Origin: Escherichia coli
GTDB taxonomy: Bacteria; Pseudomonadota; Gammaproteobacteria; Enterobacterales; Enterobacteriaceae
Reading direction: 5' to 3' (one strand)
Assembly: GCF_030384885.1 (NCBI RefSeq)
Contig: NZ_CP128613.1
DNA: 64,000 bases
Numbering within the stretch: position 1 is the stretch's first letter; the number at the start of each line of letters is the position of its first letter. The notes below the pieces were generated by a model that saw nothing but the letters and a program-made list of their open reading frames with translations, searched no databases and was not told the origin of the DNA. Of the stretch, positions 5,778 to 47,726 are shown piece after piece. The translations under genes were made by a program, and so were the position numbers.

Positions 5778-6320
5778 ATCCACTCTGTGCGAACCTGTCC
5801 TGCATTTATGCCAGAAGTATTAGAATCTTTGATTAACGTTACTCGTACTGGTAGCACCTTCATGTGCCCCTCTTTTTTACGAACAATCAAAAGAACTAAC
5901 AAAGGGCATAATTCGTATAAATCATTAACCATTTGTTATATTCAACATTTTTTTTACATTAAGCAGAGATGAATTGCAGTGAAATTCAAGTTAAATTTTA
6001 CAAAATGTATTACTCATGGCTAAAAAATCTCCCCAAAATGCAAATTAGAAGTTGATCACAATTATCTCAATACATCAAATAAAGTTAATTTTAAAAATTT
6101 AACATTCATGACATTAGTTGACATAACACGCTGAATTAAAATGAGAATTTAAAAACACACTTTAAACAATCATTTCCCGAAAGACATTTTGAAAATAGAT
6201 CAATTGCAACATTACGGTCAGATAAAGACACTCCTCTGATATTAAACCTGTGCCGTTATGAACGGCCATAAATACGACGTGTGTAACTTAATTTACTCTC
6301 TGTCTTACAAAGGATTACCC

Positions 6321-6770
6321 ATGAAGAAAGCAACACTTGTGATTGGCGTTATTGGCGCGGACTGCCATGCAGTAGGCAATAAAGTTCTGGACCGCGTTTT
6401 TAGCAACCATGACTTCAGAGTCATTAATCTGGGCGTAATGGTCAGCCAGGACGAATATATTGATGCTGCCATTGAAACTGGCGCTGACGCAATTGTCGTC
6501 TCCTCTATCTATGGGCATGGCGATATCGACTGTCTGGGCATGCGCGAACGCTGCATTGAGCGTGGCTTGGGGGACATCCTGCTCTATGTGGGCGGCAACC
6601 TGCTGGTCGGAAAACATGACTTCGCTGACGTGGAAACCAAGTTCAAAGAGATGGGATTTGATCGCGTCTTTTCCCCAAGTCATGACTTAGAAGATGTTTG
6701 TCAGCTGATGGCCCACGATATCAACCAACGTCATGACGTTGATACTCGCATTCTTGAAGAGGCAATCTGA
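6321..6770 (+). CDS. Glutamate mutase sigma (S) subunit, B12-binding (GlmS/MutS-type methylaspartate mutase small subunit)
   Basis: Translation [24 protein letters not shown]... contains the DxHxxG cobalamin-binding motif; AAGGA Shine-Dalgarno before the ATG at 6321 (the track ORF starts further upstream); followed by L and E subunits in the clostridial S-L-E order. Confidence 0.85.
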
Positions 6771-8158
6771 TGCAAATCGTCTCTGTCGATATTGGATCGA
6801 CGTGGACCAAAGCAGCCCTCTTCACCCGGGAGGGGGACGCGTTAACGTTGGTTAACCACGTTCTGACCCCAACCACCATCCATCATCTGGCAGAGGGATT
6901 TTTCTCCAGCCTTAACCAGGTGTTAAACGTAGATAATGCCCTCCCCCTGTTAAACCGTGGTGAGGTTGCATTGAAGTATTCCTCCTCTGCCAAAGGTGGG
7001 CTGGCGGTTGCCGCAATGGGATTGGTGCCTTCTATCACCCTGGAAACCGCGAAAGTAACCGCTCACTCTGCGGGTGCTAAAATTGCGCAATATTACGCCT
7101 ACAAGCTGAACCGCCGTGATATCCAGGCACTGGAAGAAACGCAGCCCGATATTCTCTTGTTCACCGGCGGCACCGACGGCGGAGAAGAAAGCTACGGACT
7201 GAATAACGCCCGTGTGCTGGCAGAATCCAAACTCGACTGCGCCATTATTTATGCCGGAAACCGGGATATTCAGGACAAGGTGCAGGAGATCCTCGGGCAT
7301 AAAGACCTGACCATCGTCGACAACGTTCTGCCCGATCTTGACCATCCGAACCCTTTAGCTGCACGCCAGGCTATCTGCGACATATTCCTTAAACGCATCG
7401 TTAAAGGGAAAGGGCTGGATGTCATTGTTGATAAAACAGGCGAAGAACCAATGCCGACACCATGGACGGTCTTTGAACTGGTGAAGGCAATCAGTAACGT
7501 CGATCACAGCTGGAAAGAGTTCATGCTGATCGACATGGGCGGCGCAACCACCGATGTCTATTCCGCCTGTGCCAACACGCTCTCGCCCGACACTGTTTTA
7601 CATGGCGTACCGGAACCCTTCGTAAAACGGACGGTGGAAGGCGATCTGGGAATGCGCGTCTCGGCAATGGTGGTTGGTGAAAGTGCGAAAGAGTTAGTCA
7701 GTGTGAATTTTGCTCAGCAACCCGCACAGTTGGACGCTTTTTATCATTACCTCCGTCATCTAGTCGCTCATCCCGACTACTTACCCGCGAATGCAGATGA
7801 AAAATATTTCGATACCGTCCTGGCCGGACTGTGTGTGGGTTATGCCACCGAAAGACATGCGGGCACCAAAAAAGAGGTCTGCACCTGCGTCGGCAATGTC
7901 GATTTACAGATGGGACGTGACCTGACAACCGTGCGTAAAGTCGTGGGTTCCGGCGGATGGCTCTCGCGTGCCAGTCAGTTCGATATGCATCACTGGTTGA
8001 AATACCGCGAGTTAAACGACGACGGTAAACGCATTCTCTTACCGACCGAATTTGAATATTACCGCGATTCCTGGGGGCTATTACCACTGCTGGCAAACGT
8101 CGCCAGAGTCGATCCGCTGGCCGCCGCGCGCACCAGTATTCAATGCTTAACCCTATAA
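6770..8158 (+). CDS. Glutamate mutase-associated MutL/GlmL protein (putative mutase chaperone/reactivase)
   Basis: 462-aa ORF whose start overlaps the S-subunit stop (TGATG); sits between the S and E subunits as in clostridial glm/mut operons. Confidence 0.75.
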   Translation: MQIVSVDIGSTWTKAALFTREGDALTLVNHVLTPTTIHHLAEGFFSSLNQVLNVDNALPLLNRGEVALKYSSSAKGGLAVAAMGLVPSITLETAKVTAHSAGAKIAQYYAYKLNRRDIQALEETQPDILLFTGGTDGGEESYGLNNARVLAESKLDCAIIYAGNRDIQDKVQEILGHKDLTIVDNVLPDLDHPNPLAARQAICDIFLKRIVKGKGLDVIVDKTGEEPMPTPWTVFELVKAISNVDHSWKEFMLIDMGGATTDVYSACANTLSPDTVLHGVPEPFVKRTVEGDLGMRVSAMVVGESAKELVSVNFAQQPAQLDAFYHYLRHLVAHPDYLPANADEKYFDTVLAGLCVGYATERHAGTKKEVCTCVGNVDLQMGRDLTTVRKVVGSGGWLSRASQFDMHHWLKYRELNDDGKRILLPTEFEYYRDSWGLLPLLANVARVDPLAAARTSIQCLTL

Positions 8159-43290: not shown

Positions 43291-44709
43291 TTATTTCCCC
43301 TTCCTCGCCGCCTCATACGCTGCCAACGTTCGTACTCTCGCTTCTTTGTGATCGACTATCGGTTGCGGATAATCCAGCGTCACACCTGATTTATCTGCCC
43401 ACTTCCACGGTTCATGCACCGCTTTCCCTGGTACATCGCGCAGCTCCGGTAACCATCGGCGGATAAACTCACCTTCGCGATCAAATTTCTCGCCCTGGGT
43501 TGTCGGGTTAAAAATACGAAAATACGGCGCAGCATCGGTTCCGGTGGAGGCCGCCCATTGCCAGCCACCGTTATTGGCTGCCAAATCACCATCAATCAGC
43601 TGCGACATGAAATATCGCTCGCCTTCGCGCCAGTCGATCAATAAATCTTTCACCAGAAAACTGGCTGTAATCATCCGTAGCCGGTTATGCATCCAGCCAC
43701 TGCTATTAAGCTGACGCATGGCGGCATCAACAATTGGGTATCCCGTTTTGCCTTCCTGCCAGGCCTTTAAATGGGCGGGATTGCTTTGCCACTGTACGCG
43801 ATCGGTCCAGGCAATAAAGGGGCGATGCTTACACAGTGACGGGTGATACGTCATCAAATGACGGTAGAACTCGCGCCAGATCAGCTCATTAAGCCAGACG
43901 CTACCAGCCCCGCCATCCAGCGCTTGCGGCTGTTCCGCCAACAGGCGATGCAGACACTGGCGAGGCGATAACCCGCCCGTTGCCAGGCTGGCGGACAAAC
44001 GACTGGTGCCTTCCACTGCCGGAAAATCTCGTTGTTGCTCATACTCTCCGGCACCGTTCTGGCAAAACTGGCGTAATTGCGCAATCGCCGCTTTTTCTTC
44101 CACCGGGAAATGCGCAGTATCGAAAGACTGACGAGGATAATTCAGCGTAATGGATGGCGCGGGCTCTATCGATCCGCTACTACGAACTTTTGGTGCAGCG
44201 ACGCACTCCGGCCCCCCTTCTCGCAGCCGTTTCAGCCAGGCGTTTTTAAATGGCGTAAAGACTTTGTACATCTCATGATTGCCAGTCATCACCGCCCCCG
44301 GCGGCAGGATCACGCTGTCATCAAATCCTTCACACACCACGTTACGCAGCGTTCTCTCAACCTGCACATCCCGAGCCCGCTCATTCACCTCATACTGATA
44401 GTTATAAAACAGATGGGTAACACGATTTTCCGCGCACACCTGTTTAACTATTTCGACGCTGGCGGCAAAGTCATCCACTTCATGAAACAGCAAAGGAATG
44501 CCTTTTTCCGCCAGCGCGATTTGTAGCCCGTTCAGTTGTGCATTGATAAATTCAGCCTGACGCGGCGACATATTATGCGCCGCCCACTGGCGTGGTGTAG
44601 CGATATACAACGCCAGCACGCGTGCAGACGAATAGCGGCAAGCGGCCGCCAGCGCGAGATTATCATGCAGACGTAAATCCTGGCGAAACCAGACCAGATG
44701 GGTAGTCAT
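43291..44709 (-). CDS. phr: Deoxyribodipyrimidine photolyase
   Basis: 472-aa ORF MTTHLVWFRQDLRLHDNLALAAACR... Confidence 0.97.
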   Translation of the reverse strand: MTTHLVWFRQDLRLHDNLALAAACRYSSARVLALYIATPRQWAAHNMSPRQAEFINAQLNGLQIALAEKGIPLLFHEVDDFAASVEIVKQVCAENRVTHLFYNYQYEVNERARDVQVERTLRNVVCEGFDDSVILPPGAVMTGNHEMYKVFTPFKNAWLKRLREGGPECVAAPKVRSSGSIEPAPSITLNYPRQSFDTAHFPVEEKAAIAQLRQFCQNGAGEYEQQRDFPAVEGTSRLSASLATGGLSPRQCLHRLLAEQPQALDGGAGSVWLNELIWREFYRHLMTYHPSLCKHRPFIAWTDRVQWQSNPAHLKAWQEGKTGYPIVDAAMRQLNSSGWMHNRLRMITASFLVKDLLIDWREGERYFMSQLIDGDLAANNGGWQWAASTGTDAAPYFRIFNPTTQGEKFDREGEFIRRWLPELRDVPGKAVHEPWKWADKSGVTLDYPQPIVDHKEARVRTLAAYEAARKGK

Positions 44710-45215
44710 AAAACTCCTGCATGGCGCAAGTTAATCACCCGCGGCCAAAGTTCGAAATAACGCTGCTCTGAAAGCCAGGCGTCAGGATAAAGCGCCATAT
44801 AGTGTTTGATACGCATCAGCGGCGCAAGAAGCGGTTGCTCGCCACGGCGATAACTGTCGATAAGCGCCGCCAGCTGCTGGCGTTCTGTGGAATCAATATG
44901 TGGGCGAAAATATCCCTGAACGTGCATCAAAACATTGGTGTGGTCACGTCGGTTGGCGGGGTGAGAAAGCAAAACAATTACGCGTTGGCGGTACTGGTTG
45001 TAATAGTCATCCAGATTTTGCCACTGGTGAATATCAGCCACAAACGGGCCAAGTTTGCGGTATTCCGGCTGGGAATGAGCCAGAAAGACGAGTTTATAGC
45101 GGCTGTGATAATCGTTGAGCGCCCCGCGCGTTAAGCCTCGCTCTTTAAGACGGTGTAACTCATGCAAAGCAAAAATGCGGATAAGGGTGCTGTCATCAAA
45201 AAGTTGTTGATTCAT
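44706..45215 (-). CDS. ybgA: DUF1722-family protein YbgA
   Basis: 169-aa ORF overlapping the phr start (ATGA), as in the K-12 ybgA-phr operon. Confidence 0.9.
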   Translation of the reverse strand: MNQQLFDDSTLIRIFALHELHRLKERGLTRGALNDYHSRYKLVFLAHSQPEYRKLGPFVADIHQWQNLDDYYNQYRQRVIVLLSHPANRRDHTNVLMHVQGYFRPHIDSTERQQLAALIDSYRRGEQPLLAPLMRIKHYMALYPDAWLSEQRYFELWPRVINLRHAGVL

Positions 45216-45412
45216 TACTACTCCTGGGCGGTTTACAGGAGTAAGTGTAGACGGCGGTACTGAAAAAACGAAACGAATAAATGATAACAGTAAAAAAATT
45301 CAATTATTCATAATAAATTTCATGGTGGCAAGAAATAGTTTCTTTTCTTCATCGCTCATGGCAGCAACGTTTAACATGTTGTCATCAAAATTATTGATGA
45401 TATTTTTTAATT

Positions 45413-45748
45413 TCAGTAACTGCAAAGGAGAAAAATAGTCACTCCGATGAGATTACTCAATACCAGCAATAGCTCCCCATCATATAAATAGCCCACCATA
45501 AGATTAATCTCTATCATCTCAATTGCTTTTTGTACAGCAAGCGCCGGTAAGATATTCTGACGAAGCATTTTGGCAATATCATTTTCATCCAGTTCATCGG
45601 GTGTTTTATCTAATAAAGAATTATACCAGTTTATTAAACCACTTTTGAAAGCGAACGAATCATATTGCAGGTGATAAATCTGTTTTAGGGTTTCTTTATT
45701 TTTCAATTTATAGTGCCTTTGTTTGCTATAATTTTTCTGAAATAACAT
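45413..45748 (-). CDS. Hypothetical small protein (111 aa); possible immunity-type partner of the upstream gene
   Basis: AT-rich ORF whose start overlaps the stop of the upstream 155/186-aa ORF by 1 nt (translational coupling). Confidence 0.45.
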   Translation of the reverse strand: MLFQKNYSKQRHYKLKNKETLKQIYHLQYDSFAFKSGLINWYNSLLDKTPDELDENDIAKMLRQNILPALAVQKAIEMIEINLMVGYLYDGELLLVLSNLIGVTIFLLCSY

Positions 45749-46215
45749 CAGCGAGTTTGCTCAGGTGCAGGGATGACCGAAATTGTCATGTATTTTTTCA
45801 GTCTGGCTTCTCGTTTCACACCTTTCGGATCTGAACCAAAAGGAAGCGTCAAGCATGGTGAGTCAACGGTTTGGATTGTCCAGAGAGAATCACCAATGAA
45901 TCTGAAATTGATGCTATCCGCTGTAACGGATAATCCCTCAAAACTTCCCGTCGCATACTCATTACCCAAACGTACGGTCTCTTTAACTCCATCGTTAACA
46001 TCGATAAGGACAATTGTCAGTGATTCCTCAAAAATAACGTCATCCGTCAGAAAAAGGATATAACGCTGGTCATTAACCTGAATTGCCGCTTCCAGTATTT
46101 GCCCTGGTACAATAATACCTGTGTTATTGCCATTAAGCACAACGTCAGACTGAGCCTGAGATAAATCAGTCGCTTTGTGAACCTTGACCAACGATATCGA
46201 ATTAACCTGTTGCAT
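45748..46215 (-). CDS. Hypothetical protein (about 155 aa from the ATG at 46215; the track ORF extends to a GTG at 46308)
   Basis: ORF from the track; start ambiguous among GTG 46308, ATG 46245 and ATG 46215, the last lying 2 nt after the stop of the small glycine-zipper ORF. Confidence 0.45.
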   Translation of the reverse strand: MQQVNSISLVKVHKATDLSQAQSDVVLNGNNTGIIVPGQILEAAIQVNDQRYILFLTDDVIFEESLTIVLIDVNDGVKETVRLGNEYATGSFEGLSVTADSINFRFIGDSLWTIQTVDSPCLTLPFGSDPKGVKREARLKKYMTISVIPAPEQTR

Positions 46216-46217
46216 AA

Positions 46218-46358
46218 TCAATTCCACAAGCGCCCCATTTCCCATGCGGCAAGTGCACCGCCGACAAAGCCGCCAATAAGTACGCAAACAGGTGCTCCTG
46301 GACCACACATCAATCCGGTCAACGCACCGCCTGCGACAGCACCGGCAATAATATTCAT
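46218..46358 (-). CDS. Small glycine-zipper hydrophobic peptide (46 aa), candidate small membrane protein or toxin-like peptide
   Basis: Hand translation gives MNIIAGAVAGGALTGLMCGPGAPVCVLIGGFVGGALAAWEMGRLWN with repeated GxxxG spacing; below the track length cutoff; no strong Shine-Dalgarno seen. Confidence 0.35.
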   Translation of the reverse strand: MNIIAGAVAGGALTGLMCGPGAPVCVLIGGFVGGALAAWEMGRLWN

Positions 46359-46541
46359 CCGGGTACGACTGCCAGTGGTTTTAACAGATTTACGCTCACC
46401 GTTACGTATCCTGCCACCACTCAGGTTGCAGACGCGGCAGTCACAGCCTTGACGGTGTTGAAACTAAAGTTCAGGTGATAGTCTGATGTTCATAGTTTGA
46501 GCATTATCCCCTGACAGAATCAAATCAAGCAGTGTCAATGA

Positions 46542-46799
46542 TCACGTGTATATATCATTTAAAGCATTATCAAGCCAATCTTCCATGTTTTTAATTTTAG
46601 CCCGCGCATATAAATCATTCATAACATCCTCATAACTCTGTCCATCATTGACCATACAATTAGCTGTATGAGGCAGAACATGTATAAAATCAGACAATAT
46701 AAAACAAGCCTTTGAATTTCCAGAGTTAGCTGCAATTCTGATATCAATCAATCCTCTGGCAATCAATTTAAGAATAACATCTTGCATTTTAATTTCCAT
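46542..46799 (-). CDS. Hypothetical small protein (85 aa)
   Basis: AT-rich ORF in the same orientation as its neighbours; no recognisable motif. Confidence 0.4.
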   Translation of the reverse strand: MEIKMQDVILKLIARGLIDIRIAANSGNSKACFILSDFIHVLPHTANCMVNDGQSYEDVMNDLYARAKIKNMEDWLDNALNDIYT

Positions 46800-46881: not shown

Positions 46882-47235
46882 TCAAAAATATACATCATCA
46901 GCTTCTACCGAAAACTCCATGGCTCCTAAGGCACCTAAATCAATACTAAATATAGTATCACTTTCCTTAGCACTCCCAACATAGATAAAATAGCCTAAAT
47001 CTCCGTCTTGACCTATCAAAAAATAGTCAGGTTCCACTTGTTGAATATCATATGTTTCATTTCTTTCAATAAGATCAGAATAGTTATATAAATATAATGT
47101 TTCGTGCTTCTTATTAGTTATTTCATAGGTCTCACTATCTTTAATTTCTTCTATCAAAAAACGTTTATACACTGGAGGAAACTTGATTGACATGTCAAAT
47201 TCAATTTTATTTATATATTCTATAATTTTATTCAT
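46882..47235 (-). CDS. SUKH/SMI1-KNR4-like putative immunity protein (117 aa)
   Basis: Motif LIGQDGDLGYFIYV resembles the conserved G-x-D-G-x-G-x-Y core of SUKH immunity proteins; short, acidic, AT-rich; sits where K-12 has rhs-associated genes. Confidence 0.5.
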   Translation of the reverse strand: MNKIIEYINKIEFDMSIKFPPVYKRFLIEEIKDSETYEITNKKHETLYLYNYSDLIERNETYDIQQVEPDYFLIGQDGDLGYFIYVGSAKESDTIFSIDLGALGAMEFSVEADDVYF

Positions 47236-47519: not shown

Positions 47520-47726
47520 TCAGTAAAAATCACCGGTTGCCTTTTCGGCCTGATCCATCCACACCGGCTTATCGCTGGTTTTCGACCAGACGCGATGCAG
47601 GTAGCTGTAAAAGCGGGCGCGGTCTTTCCAGAAAAGCATGAAAGGCAGCGCCAAAACGCCCGCTGCAACCGCATAAGTACGGCGTAAAAAGATAAGCCAT
47701 GCAGGATATTCTCTGTAGAGTTCCAT
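47520..47726 (-). CDS. ybfA: Small membrane protein YbfA (DUF2517)
   Basis: 68-aa [71 protein letters not shown]. Confidence 0.9.

Follow-up and report, generated by a model that had tools for sequence, protein, structure and literature searches.

The DNA stretch analysed here, hereafter the window, comprises 64,000 nucleotides of an Escherichia coli contig (NZ_CP128613.1), and all coordinates refer to it. Its sequence agrees with that of E. coli 2013C-4282 at 100% identity. The ORF under study is located between ybfA (47726..47520) and ybgA (45215..44706), a locus flanked by kdpFA and phrB; between ybfA and ybgA, E. coli K-12 carries rhsC. The interval encodes, all on the minus strand, a SUKH-1 protein, an 85-aa protein, the 46-aa ORF, a 155-aa gene and a CdiI_3 gene; no rhs or cdiA ORF was found between ybfA and ybgA. 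The first gene (46882..47235) encodes a 117-aa protein of the SMI1/KNR4 (SUKH-1) family (Pfam PF09346, E = 1.6e-4), a polymorphic-toxin immunity family, while the 85-aa gene (46542..46799) was not assigned to any family. The last one (45300..45706) is a frameshifted CDI immunity gene of the CdiI_3 family (PF18616, E = 2e-17). A 1-nt deletion near position 45446 reduces it to 97 aa (from the PGAP start) or 111 aa (mechanical ORF), followed by a 41-aa ORF; in strains EC42405 and Ecol_316 the gene is intact and encodes 135 aa. Its PGAP start, at 45706, is a TTG in the window, and the TGATG stop/start overlap of the 155-aa gene with the CdiI_3 frame at 45748 is an accident of a cassette junction. 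A promoter and terminator scan gave no enrichment over shuffled sequence.

The 46-aa ORF extends on the minus strand from an ATG at 46358 to a TGA at 46220-46218 and is translated as MNIIAGAVAGGALTGLMCGPGAPVCVLIGGFVGGALAAWEMGRLWN. Start, stop and translation are as given in the initial annotation, which had described a glycine-zipper membrane peptide coupled to the following gene. The peptide contains 11 Gly and 8 Ala residues, has a mean hydropathy of +1.13, and ten [GAS]xxx[GAS] spacings were counted in it. Its frame is open upstream as far as a TAG at 46466-46464, and no ATG, GTG or TTG precedes 46358 in this open, 81-residue stop-to-stop frame. The Shine-Dalgarno pairing calculated for the ORF amounts to only -2.1 kcal/mol, a very weak one. 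NCBIfam, PADLOC and PHROGs contained no match to the peptide. The TGA is followed by TT and then by the ATG (46215) of the 155-aa gene, and the 2-nt spacing between both genes previously pointed out is therefore real. The following gene is nevertheless of 155 aa and not of 186: the mechanical 186-aa ORF begins at a GTG inside the peptide ORF, and the gene called by PGAP is the shorter one.

The 155-aa gene (45748..46215, minus strand; WP_001188052.1 in the PGAP annotation) encodes a soluble protein, putatively an immunity protein that is an orphan here. Neither a signal peptide nor a transmembrane segment was detected in it, and searches against Pfam, NCBIfam, PADLOC and PHROG did not retrieve any family match. 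An AlphaFold2 (AF2) model predicts an all-beta protein. Shine-Dalgarno pairing at its start is also weak (-3.3 kcal/mol).

Residues 4-45 of the 46-aa ORF match positions 197-238 of the 245-position profile of a putative toxin family (E = 1.6e-17, hmmsearch), and Enterobacter and Citrobacter members of that family share its last 31 aa at 100% identity. The glycine-zipper spacing is thus not a product of chance. The toxin-derived DNA (46218..46350, minus strand) is the 3′ end of a toxin gene and encodes a C-terminal Gly-zipper helical hairpin. When compared with the Enterobacter locus L007, nucleotide homology (78.6%) extends from 46350 to 45779 and covers the ORF from codons 3-4 onward as well as the 155-aa gene. 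Codons 4-46 differ from L007 by 14 synonymous and three nonsynonymous codon changes, a pattern compatible with constraint, possibly exerted while the tail still belonged to a full gene. Among the several origins proposed in the initial annotation, that of the tail of a contact-dependent toxin was therefore essentially right: residues 4-45 correspond to the last 42 matched profile positions of a toxin.

The approximately 200 nt upstream of the toxin tail are two pieces of one IS630-family element (76 and 83% nucleotide identity). The first (46425..46552, minus strand) is the left end of the element with the first ~27 transposase codons, and is 76% identical to nucleotides 899-1038 of locus L016. 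The second (46348..46427, minus strand) is an internal transposase fragment, approximately codons 178-204, 83% identical to nucleotides 1489-1568 of the same locus; in a Pantoea element, transposase codons ~178-204 read KLSGGWIRRGERKPVKTIGSRTRMNIIGAL. Between both pieces, the relic has lost about 450 nt of the transposase gene that the intact element possesses. IS630 transposases encoded on plasmids also match this upstream region (tblastn and blastn). The transposase start of the relic is the ATG at 46493 (MNIRLSPEL*), its frame being broken by a 12-nt deletion and a stop. The ATG at 46358 aligns with an internal methionine of the transposase (...SRTRMNIIGAL), and LSGG, upstream of this ATG, aligns with transposase KLSGG. 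As the DNA upstream aligns with the IS630 element, the start of the ORF is a borrowed one, namely an internal transposase Met codon. Upstream MNIRLSPEL and NLSGG were also considered as a degraded double-glycine leader, a reading that was rejected because both align to the IS630 transposase. The insertion also affected the upstream neighbour: the last codons and the stop of the 85-aa gene (46542..46552) are IS630-derived, which indicates that the IS630 element re-tailed that gene, 94 aa long in Ecol_316.

IS630 homology stops at about 46348-46338, and the junction lies within a short sequence, I-(I/G)-A-G-A, that is common to both parents. The alignments show the ORF (46218..46358) to be a chimera in which four IS630 codons are joined in frame to 42 toxin codons: codons 1-4 (MNII) are IS630 relic, and codons 4-46 plus the stop are toxin 3′ end. 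An independent small membrane toxin gene, another of the origins initially proposed, or a Hok-like toxin does not agree with this structure, as only 42 of the 46 codons are toxin-derived and the start was supplied by an IS630 transposase. PGAP annotates the ORF as a hypothetical protein (WP_157943798.1) in strains EC42405 and 2020CK-00188. In 11 other E. coli genomes, it annotates instead a pseudogene fragment of an IS630 family transposase (46424..46305) in the same frame, of which the portion ~46347..46305 matches the toxin family. Judged from the alignments, the two conflicting annotations of the same 141 nt each cover one half of the chimera. The expectation that the ORF would be missed by standard annotation is hence only partly right.

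Comparison with Ecol_316 delimits an 810-bp cassette (45741..46550, minus strand) that contains the IS630 relic, the toxin stump and the putative immunity gene; in the common E. coli arrangement, represented by Ecol_316, 8 bp are found in its place. The cassette is present in 13 out of 5,426 complete E. coli genomes, always with the same junction, and no other copy of the toxin sequence was detected in these 5,426 genomes at about 65-70% identity or above. The ORF frame is unbroken in the five E. coli copies read (5/5). Conservation of the reading frame, suggested earlier as a check of the peptide, is thereby found but is uninformative among E. coli strains, because all E. coli copies derive from one junction event. 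Two E. coli lineages can be distinguished: the stump differs at 7 out of 132 nt and the immunity gene at only 2 out of 468 nt, the 155-aa protein being identical in all E. coli copies read. The seven stump substitutions that separate the window type from EC42405 and 2020CK-00188 are packed in 46 nt (46296..46341), and it is the EC42405 allele that agrees with intact toxins. A short recombination patch, rather than point mutation, appears as the likeliest origin of this cluster. Ecol_316 also carries about 240 bp between ybfA and the SUKH-1 gene (L006 1587..1825) that the window lacks (~47465), a further indel in an island of immunity genes that is variable.

With respect to the parent toxin family, the 81-residue stop-to-stop frame matched 40 proteins of 46-141 aa from Enterobacter, Cronobacter, Pantoea, Kosakonia and more distant Proteobacteria, which have the C-terminal 30-45 residues in common, some of them at 100% identity. 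When a 141-aa Kosakonia protein was used as the query of a HMMER scan, 370 clusters at 50% identity were obtained (E <= 1e-3), most of them of 230-330 aa and with the matched domain at the C-terminus. The domain, of about 230 aa, occurs in hundreds of Proteobacteria, and some UniProt members are titled 'Glycine zipper family protein'. Its consensus architecture consists of a helical N-terminal region of ~150 residues, a hydrophobic helix (TM1, GRGLIVLSIAISVY) and the Gly-zipper hairpin, with consensus AGGAxAGLxCGPGAPVCVxxGxFVGGALAA. AF2 models a 235-aa member as an entirely helical protein (mean pLDDT 86), in which the hairpin corresponds to the last two, low-confidence helices. Full-length relatives possess about 190 more N-terminal residues than the toxin part of the ORF. 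As the ORF retains only the last 42 of the ~230 residues, and hence lacks the complete domain (helical bundle, TM1 and hairpin), it is a fragment of a family member and not a member itself.

One protein of the family, P0042 (414 aa), carries an N-terminal T6SS PAAR domain (NCBIfam NF033420, 143 bits with a cut-off of 124, and Pfam PF05488), and other members bear varied long N-terminal extensions. In the loci examined, the toxin is either fused to PAAR or stands alone, and is never fused to Rhs or CdiA. No NCBIfam, PADLOC or Pfam model matched the toxin domain. Residues 90-231 of the intact toxin of locus L017 (3712..4431) weakly match positions 771-900 of the 1,251-position profile phrog_1047, 'tail associated lysin' (E = 3.7e-7), which hints at a related membrane-active module inside large phage tail proteins. 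Neither a single member nor the family profile retrieved any relative in sequence searches of the PDB. Mentions of the RefSeq accessions were not found in the literature, nor was a glycine-zipper family in the supplements of the T6SS effector catalogue (PMC11148199). The toxin/partner family has no Pfam or NCBIfam model, and no description of it was found in the literature searched.

A homolog of the 155-aa protein, of 151-159 aa, is encoded directly downstream of the toxin gene in the eight related loci read by hand (8/8), and the stop-NN-ATG junction between both genes is identical in the Kosakonia, Enterobacter and Pantoea loci. The coupled partner postulated in the initial annotation is thus a regular feature of the family, and the comparison of junctions identifies the 2-nt stop/ATG spacing as the ancestral toxin-immunity junction, preserved in the window. 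The survey was extended to 59 species-level loci encoding the partner, which were scanned with toxin and partner profiles. The partner follows every intact toxin in this set, the loci having been chosen for encoding it. An intact toxin ORF lies directly upstream of the partner in about 22 of the 59 loci; in about eight others the toxin is truncated or frameshifted, and recognised by the profile nonetheless. About 29 loci contain no profile-detectable toxin; at least four of these hold a tail stump of 13-19 aa, and in about 25 of the 59 a stump could not be recognised.

The sequence just upstream of the partner was read in the orphan loci, and the stumps turned out to be independent, each with its own breakpoint. 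They retain 157 toxin residues in L018, 57 in the Enterobacter loci L007 and L008, 42 in the E. coli window, 19 in L023, about 18 in L025, 15 in L041 and 13 in L021. Such graded stumps are the pattern expected for a toxin gene that would be decaying beside a selected immunity gene. Since stump length varies elsewhere, the window ORF can be considered one member of a decay series and not a conserved small gene. Otherwise full-length toxins with a mid-gene frameshift or stop (profile positions ~100-135) and an intact partner were also observed (L003 7541..8426; L005 6150..7038; L009 6539..7252; L051; L065). Inactivation of the toxin with retention of immunity seems to be common in this toxin family.

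The genomic settings of the intact and partial pairs include a P4-type primase gene, P2-like tail genes, a Mu-like prophage, McrBC, AbiE, SIR2/DUF87 and type I R-M genes; immediate neighbours of intact pairs include DUF3289/DUF943, a Tlde1 domain and a CdiA-CT RNase A domain. DUF3289 is a T6SS colicin-M-like effector and DUF943 its immunity protein (PMC11148199). The stand-alone enterobacterial toxins, of about 240 aa, adjoin P4-like primase genes, prophage tail modules, defence islands and other effector-immunity pairs. In several small islands, the pair comes just after the P4-type primase gene (L017 1431..6630; L032 1433..7474; L030; L020). P4-type islands also hold DUF3289/DUF943 pairs (three tandem copies in Tatumella) and proteins with Tlde1 and CdiA-CT RNase A domains, and satellites appear to carry arrays of interbacterial effector-immunity pairs. 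In Mangrovibacter (L038, L039 and L040, ~6260..7955), two paralogous partner genes in tandem come after the toxin gene. The inserted group has the tape-measure gene of a Mu-like contractile-tail prophage on one side and the baseplate-hub gene on the other, which is an unusual site for a toxin/immunity moron; of the three loci, L038 and L040 have an intact toxin and L039 a frameshifted one.

Taken together, the gene content points to the 155-aa protein being the cognate immunity protein of the toxin, and we favour the interpretation that the pair is a toxin-immunity module for competition between bacteria. This interpretation is based on the PAAR fusion, on the effector neighbours and on the fact that the partner is often found alone and among SUKH-1/CdiI_3 genes. 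The intact toxin would be delivered between bacteria, by the T6SS at least in the case of the PAAR-fused P0042; it is from this member only that we infer T6SS delivery. Once delivered, it may damage the inner membrane by means of TM1 and the Gly-zipper hairpin, and the soluble partner may neutralise it; sequestration of the hydrophobic tail, known from ExiAB and EsxX, is a possible mechanism. A paired AF2 model (toxin, linker and immunity protein, with a 19-pair alignment) reached a mean pLDDT of 58.6, with 27-41 at the tail and no confident interface; as such an alignment is too shallow, the model says nothing on tail sequestration. A Foldseek search of this model against the PDB gave no hit. 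A soluble, cytoplasmic, all-beta immunity protein for a membrane-inserting toxin is unusual, and this feature counts against the toxin-immunity interpretation.

For the ORF itself, we consider it very probable that it is a chimeric relic and not an ancestral gene, with a toxin tail that was cut off by IS630 and kept in front of an intact orphan immunity gene. Its chimeric origin, the toxin family membership of its tail, the conserved gene pair and the recurrence of independent stumps are all shown by the comparisons described above. According to the proposed course of events, an IS630-family element would have inserted into the gene for a glycine-zipper membrane toxin of about 240 aa. Later deletions would have removed most of the IS together with the first ~195 toxin codons, and would have brought a transposase segment (...SRTRMNII) and the final 42 toxin codons into one reading frame. 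The stump would have survived because it abuts the still-intact cognate immunity gene, and the 155-aa gene may have been kept as an orphan immunity gene within an immunity-gene island (SUKH-1, CdiI_3). Most likely, the stump as such is functionless.

At most, the stump might act as a translated leader that keeps ribosomes arriving at the immunity start, which is weakly equipped with a Shine-Dalgarno sequence: ribosomes entering at the ATG 46358 would stop 2 nt before that start and re-initiate there. The function would then reside in the act of translation and not in the peptide, and would be compatible with the relic interpretation. The stop-TT-ATG junction is conserved in the enterobacterial loci, Shine-Dalgarno pairing at the immunity start is weak, as indicated above, and several independent stumps retain at least 13 toxin codons before the immunity gene. 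However, a stump is not required, as the many orphan loci that hold the immunity gene without a recognisable one (about 25/59) indicate. The ribosome-binding site of the relic ORF is even weaker than that of the gene it would serve, and deletions that end short of the immunity gene would give the same pattern without any selection on the stump. We therefore regard a role as translated leader as doubtful.

The proximity of intact pairs to satellite, prophage and defence genes raises the possibility that the pair is a phage-defence (abortive-infection) or toxin-antitoxin module of mobile elements, the membrane protein being a suicide effector, the 155-aa protein its sensor or antitoxin, and the E. 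coli copy a dead system. Pairs do adjoin P4-like primase, prophage tail modules, McrBC, AbiE, SIR2/DUF87 and type I R-M genes. Nevertheless, no PADLOC match was obtained, one member is PAAR-fused and others have the long N-terminal extensions typical of polymorphic toxins, and the neighbours include the interbacterial effectors DUF3289/DUF943, Tlde1 and CdiA-CT RNase. In about half of the species-level loci, moreover, the 155-aa gene stands alone and intact, and the E. coli one lies within an immunity-gene island. A lone gene of this type is expected if it confers immunity to an incoming toxin, and would be pointless as an orphan antitoxin or sensor. A defence role is quite unlikely in the light of these data.

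A more far-reaching scenario must be considered improbable. The relic would be translated and its hairpin recognised by the 155-aa protein, the two forming a self-stabilising mini toxin-antitoxin pair, or the relic acting as a decoy that tunes the immunity protein. The parent family would consist of uncharacterised mobile membrane toxins, carried on satellites and prophages, sometimes fused to PAAR and neutralised in the cytoplasm by an all-beta protein.

It could also be argued that the 46-aa peptide is a functional small membrane protein, either a miniature toxin (pore-forming or depolarising) that the 155-aa protein keeps under control, the two being a de facto toxin-antitoxin pair, or a secreted microcin-like peptide, the latter having been among the options of the initial annotation. 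The complete Gly-zipper hairpin is retained, the frame is unbroken in all copies read, and EsxX provides a precedent for a toxic glycine-zipper C-terminal region sequestered by a soluble partner (PMC12744356). The peptide also gives a weak match to Pfam Bacteriocin_IIc (E = 5.8e-4). This latter match is compositional, as it lies on the Gly-rich tail plus transposase-derived residues, and it was rejected because the true relatives are of about 240 aa and the 'GG' comes from the transposase. The start codon of the ORF is an accidental one, an internal codon of a transposase, and it is preceded by a poor ribosome-binding site. The peptide lacks TM1 and the helical domain of ~190 aa that all intact members conserve. 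The ORF belongs to a single young lineage (13/5,426 genomes, one junction), and the differing stump lengths elsewhere form a decay series. With respect to class II bacteriocins and microcins with a double-glycine leader (PF10439), the likeness is restricted to a Gly/Ala-rich hydrophobic peptide of similar size: unlike them, the ORF has no leader peptide, neither a double-glycine leader within it nor any other, and no C39/ABC exporter or small membrane immunity gene nearby. No exporter or processing gene was found in the 43-50 kb region. These features, and relatives of about 240 aa, lead us to discard the microcin option, and a functional peptide of any kind appears very unlikely. Finally, the reading that PGAP gives in 11 of the 13 E. 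coli genomes, in which the stretch would be nothing but a fragment of an IS630 transposase pseudogene, is almost certainly wrong: IS630 homology is real across 46552..46348, but the remaining ~130 nt, where the entire Gly zipper is encoded, match the toxin family instead of the transposase, no Pfam DDE domain is found in the 81-aa stop-to-stop frame, and toxin nucleotide and profile homology refute this explanation for the 3′ three-quarters of the ORF.

As a chimeric relic, the ORF resembles the orphan Rhs/CDI toxin-fragment and immunity modules and the orphan T6SS immunity genes (PMC3967940, PMC10539506) in that the 5′-truncated end of a toxin gene precedes an intact immunity gene. As in the Rhs/CDI orphan modules, the window pair is located among other immunity genes, in a strain without the full toxin. 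It differs from them in that the interval contains no rhs/cdiA gene and no Rhs or CdiA core sequence precedes the stump, and in that truncation would have been caused by an IS630 element and not by displacement through recombination. The parent family shares a C-terminal glycine-zipper helical hairpin with EsxX and with Tse5-CT, Ssp6 and Tde1. All four are glycine-zipper toxins that depolarise the membrane, the latter three of the T6SS (cited in PMC11148199 and PMC10240207) and EsxX of the T7SS. In EsxX, the glycine-zipper C-terminal regions are toxic and the soluble, cytoplasmic ExiAB sequesters the zipper (PMC12744356). EsxX is hence a precedent for the neutralisation of a glycine-zipper toxin by a soluble partner such as the 155-aa protein. 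The CDI ionophore toxins (CdiA-CT EC93-like) are five-helix bundles attached to CdiA (PMC11630599). The family recalls them in the helical membrane-inserting domain, the competition between E. coli strains and the highly specific cognate immunity that characterise CDI toxins, but homology to them was not found.

Toxin stumps that precede an orphan immunity gene are nothing out of the ordinary, and the ORF itself is of little import; it shows that a neat small ORF with a motif and a coupled gene can be an accident. Its analysis uncovered a widespread toxin/partner family that lacks a Pfam or NCBIfam model and deserves a modest follow-up. The pair travels with P4-like satellites and prophage tail modules, beside known T6SS effectors, and the partner is often an orphan. 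If the soluble partner does neutralise a glycine-zipper toxin, the compartment-specific immunity described for EsxX in Staphylococcus would extend to Gram-negative bacteria.
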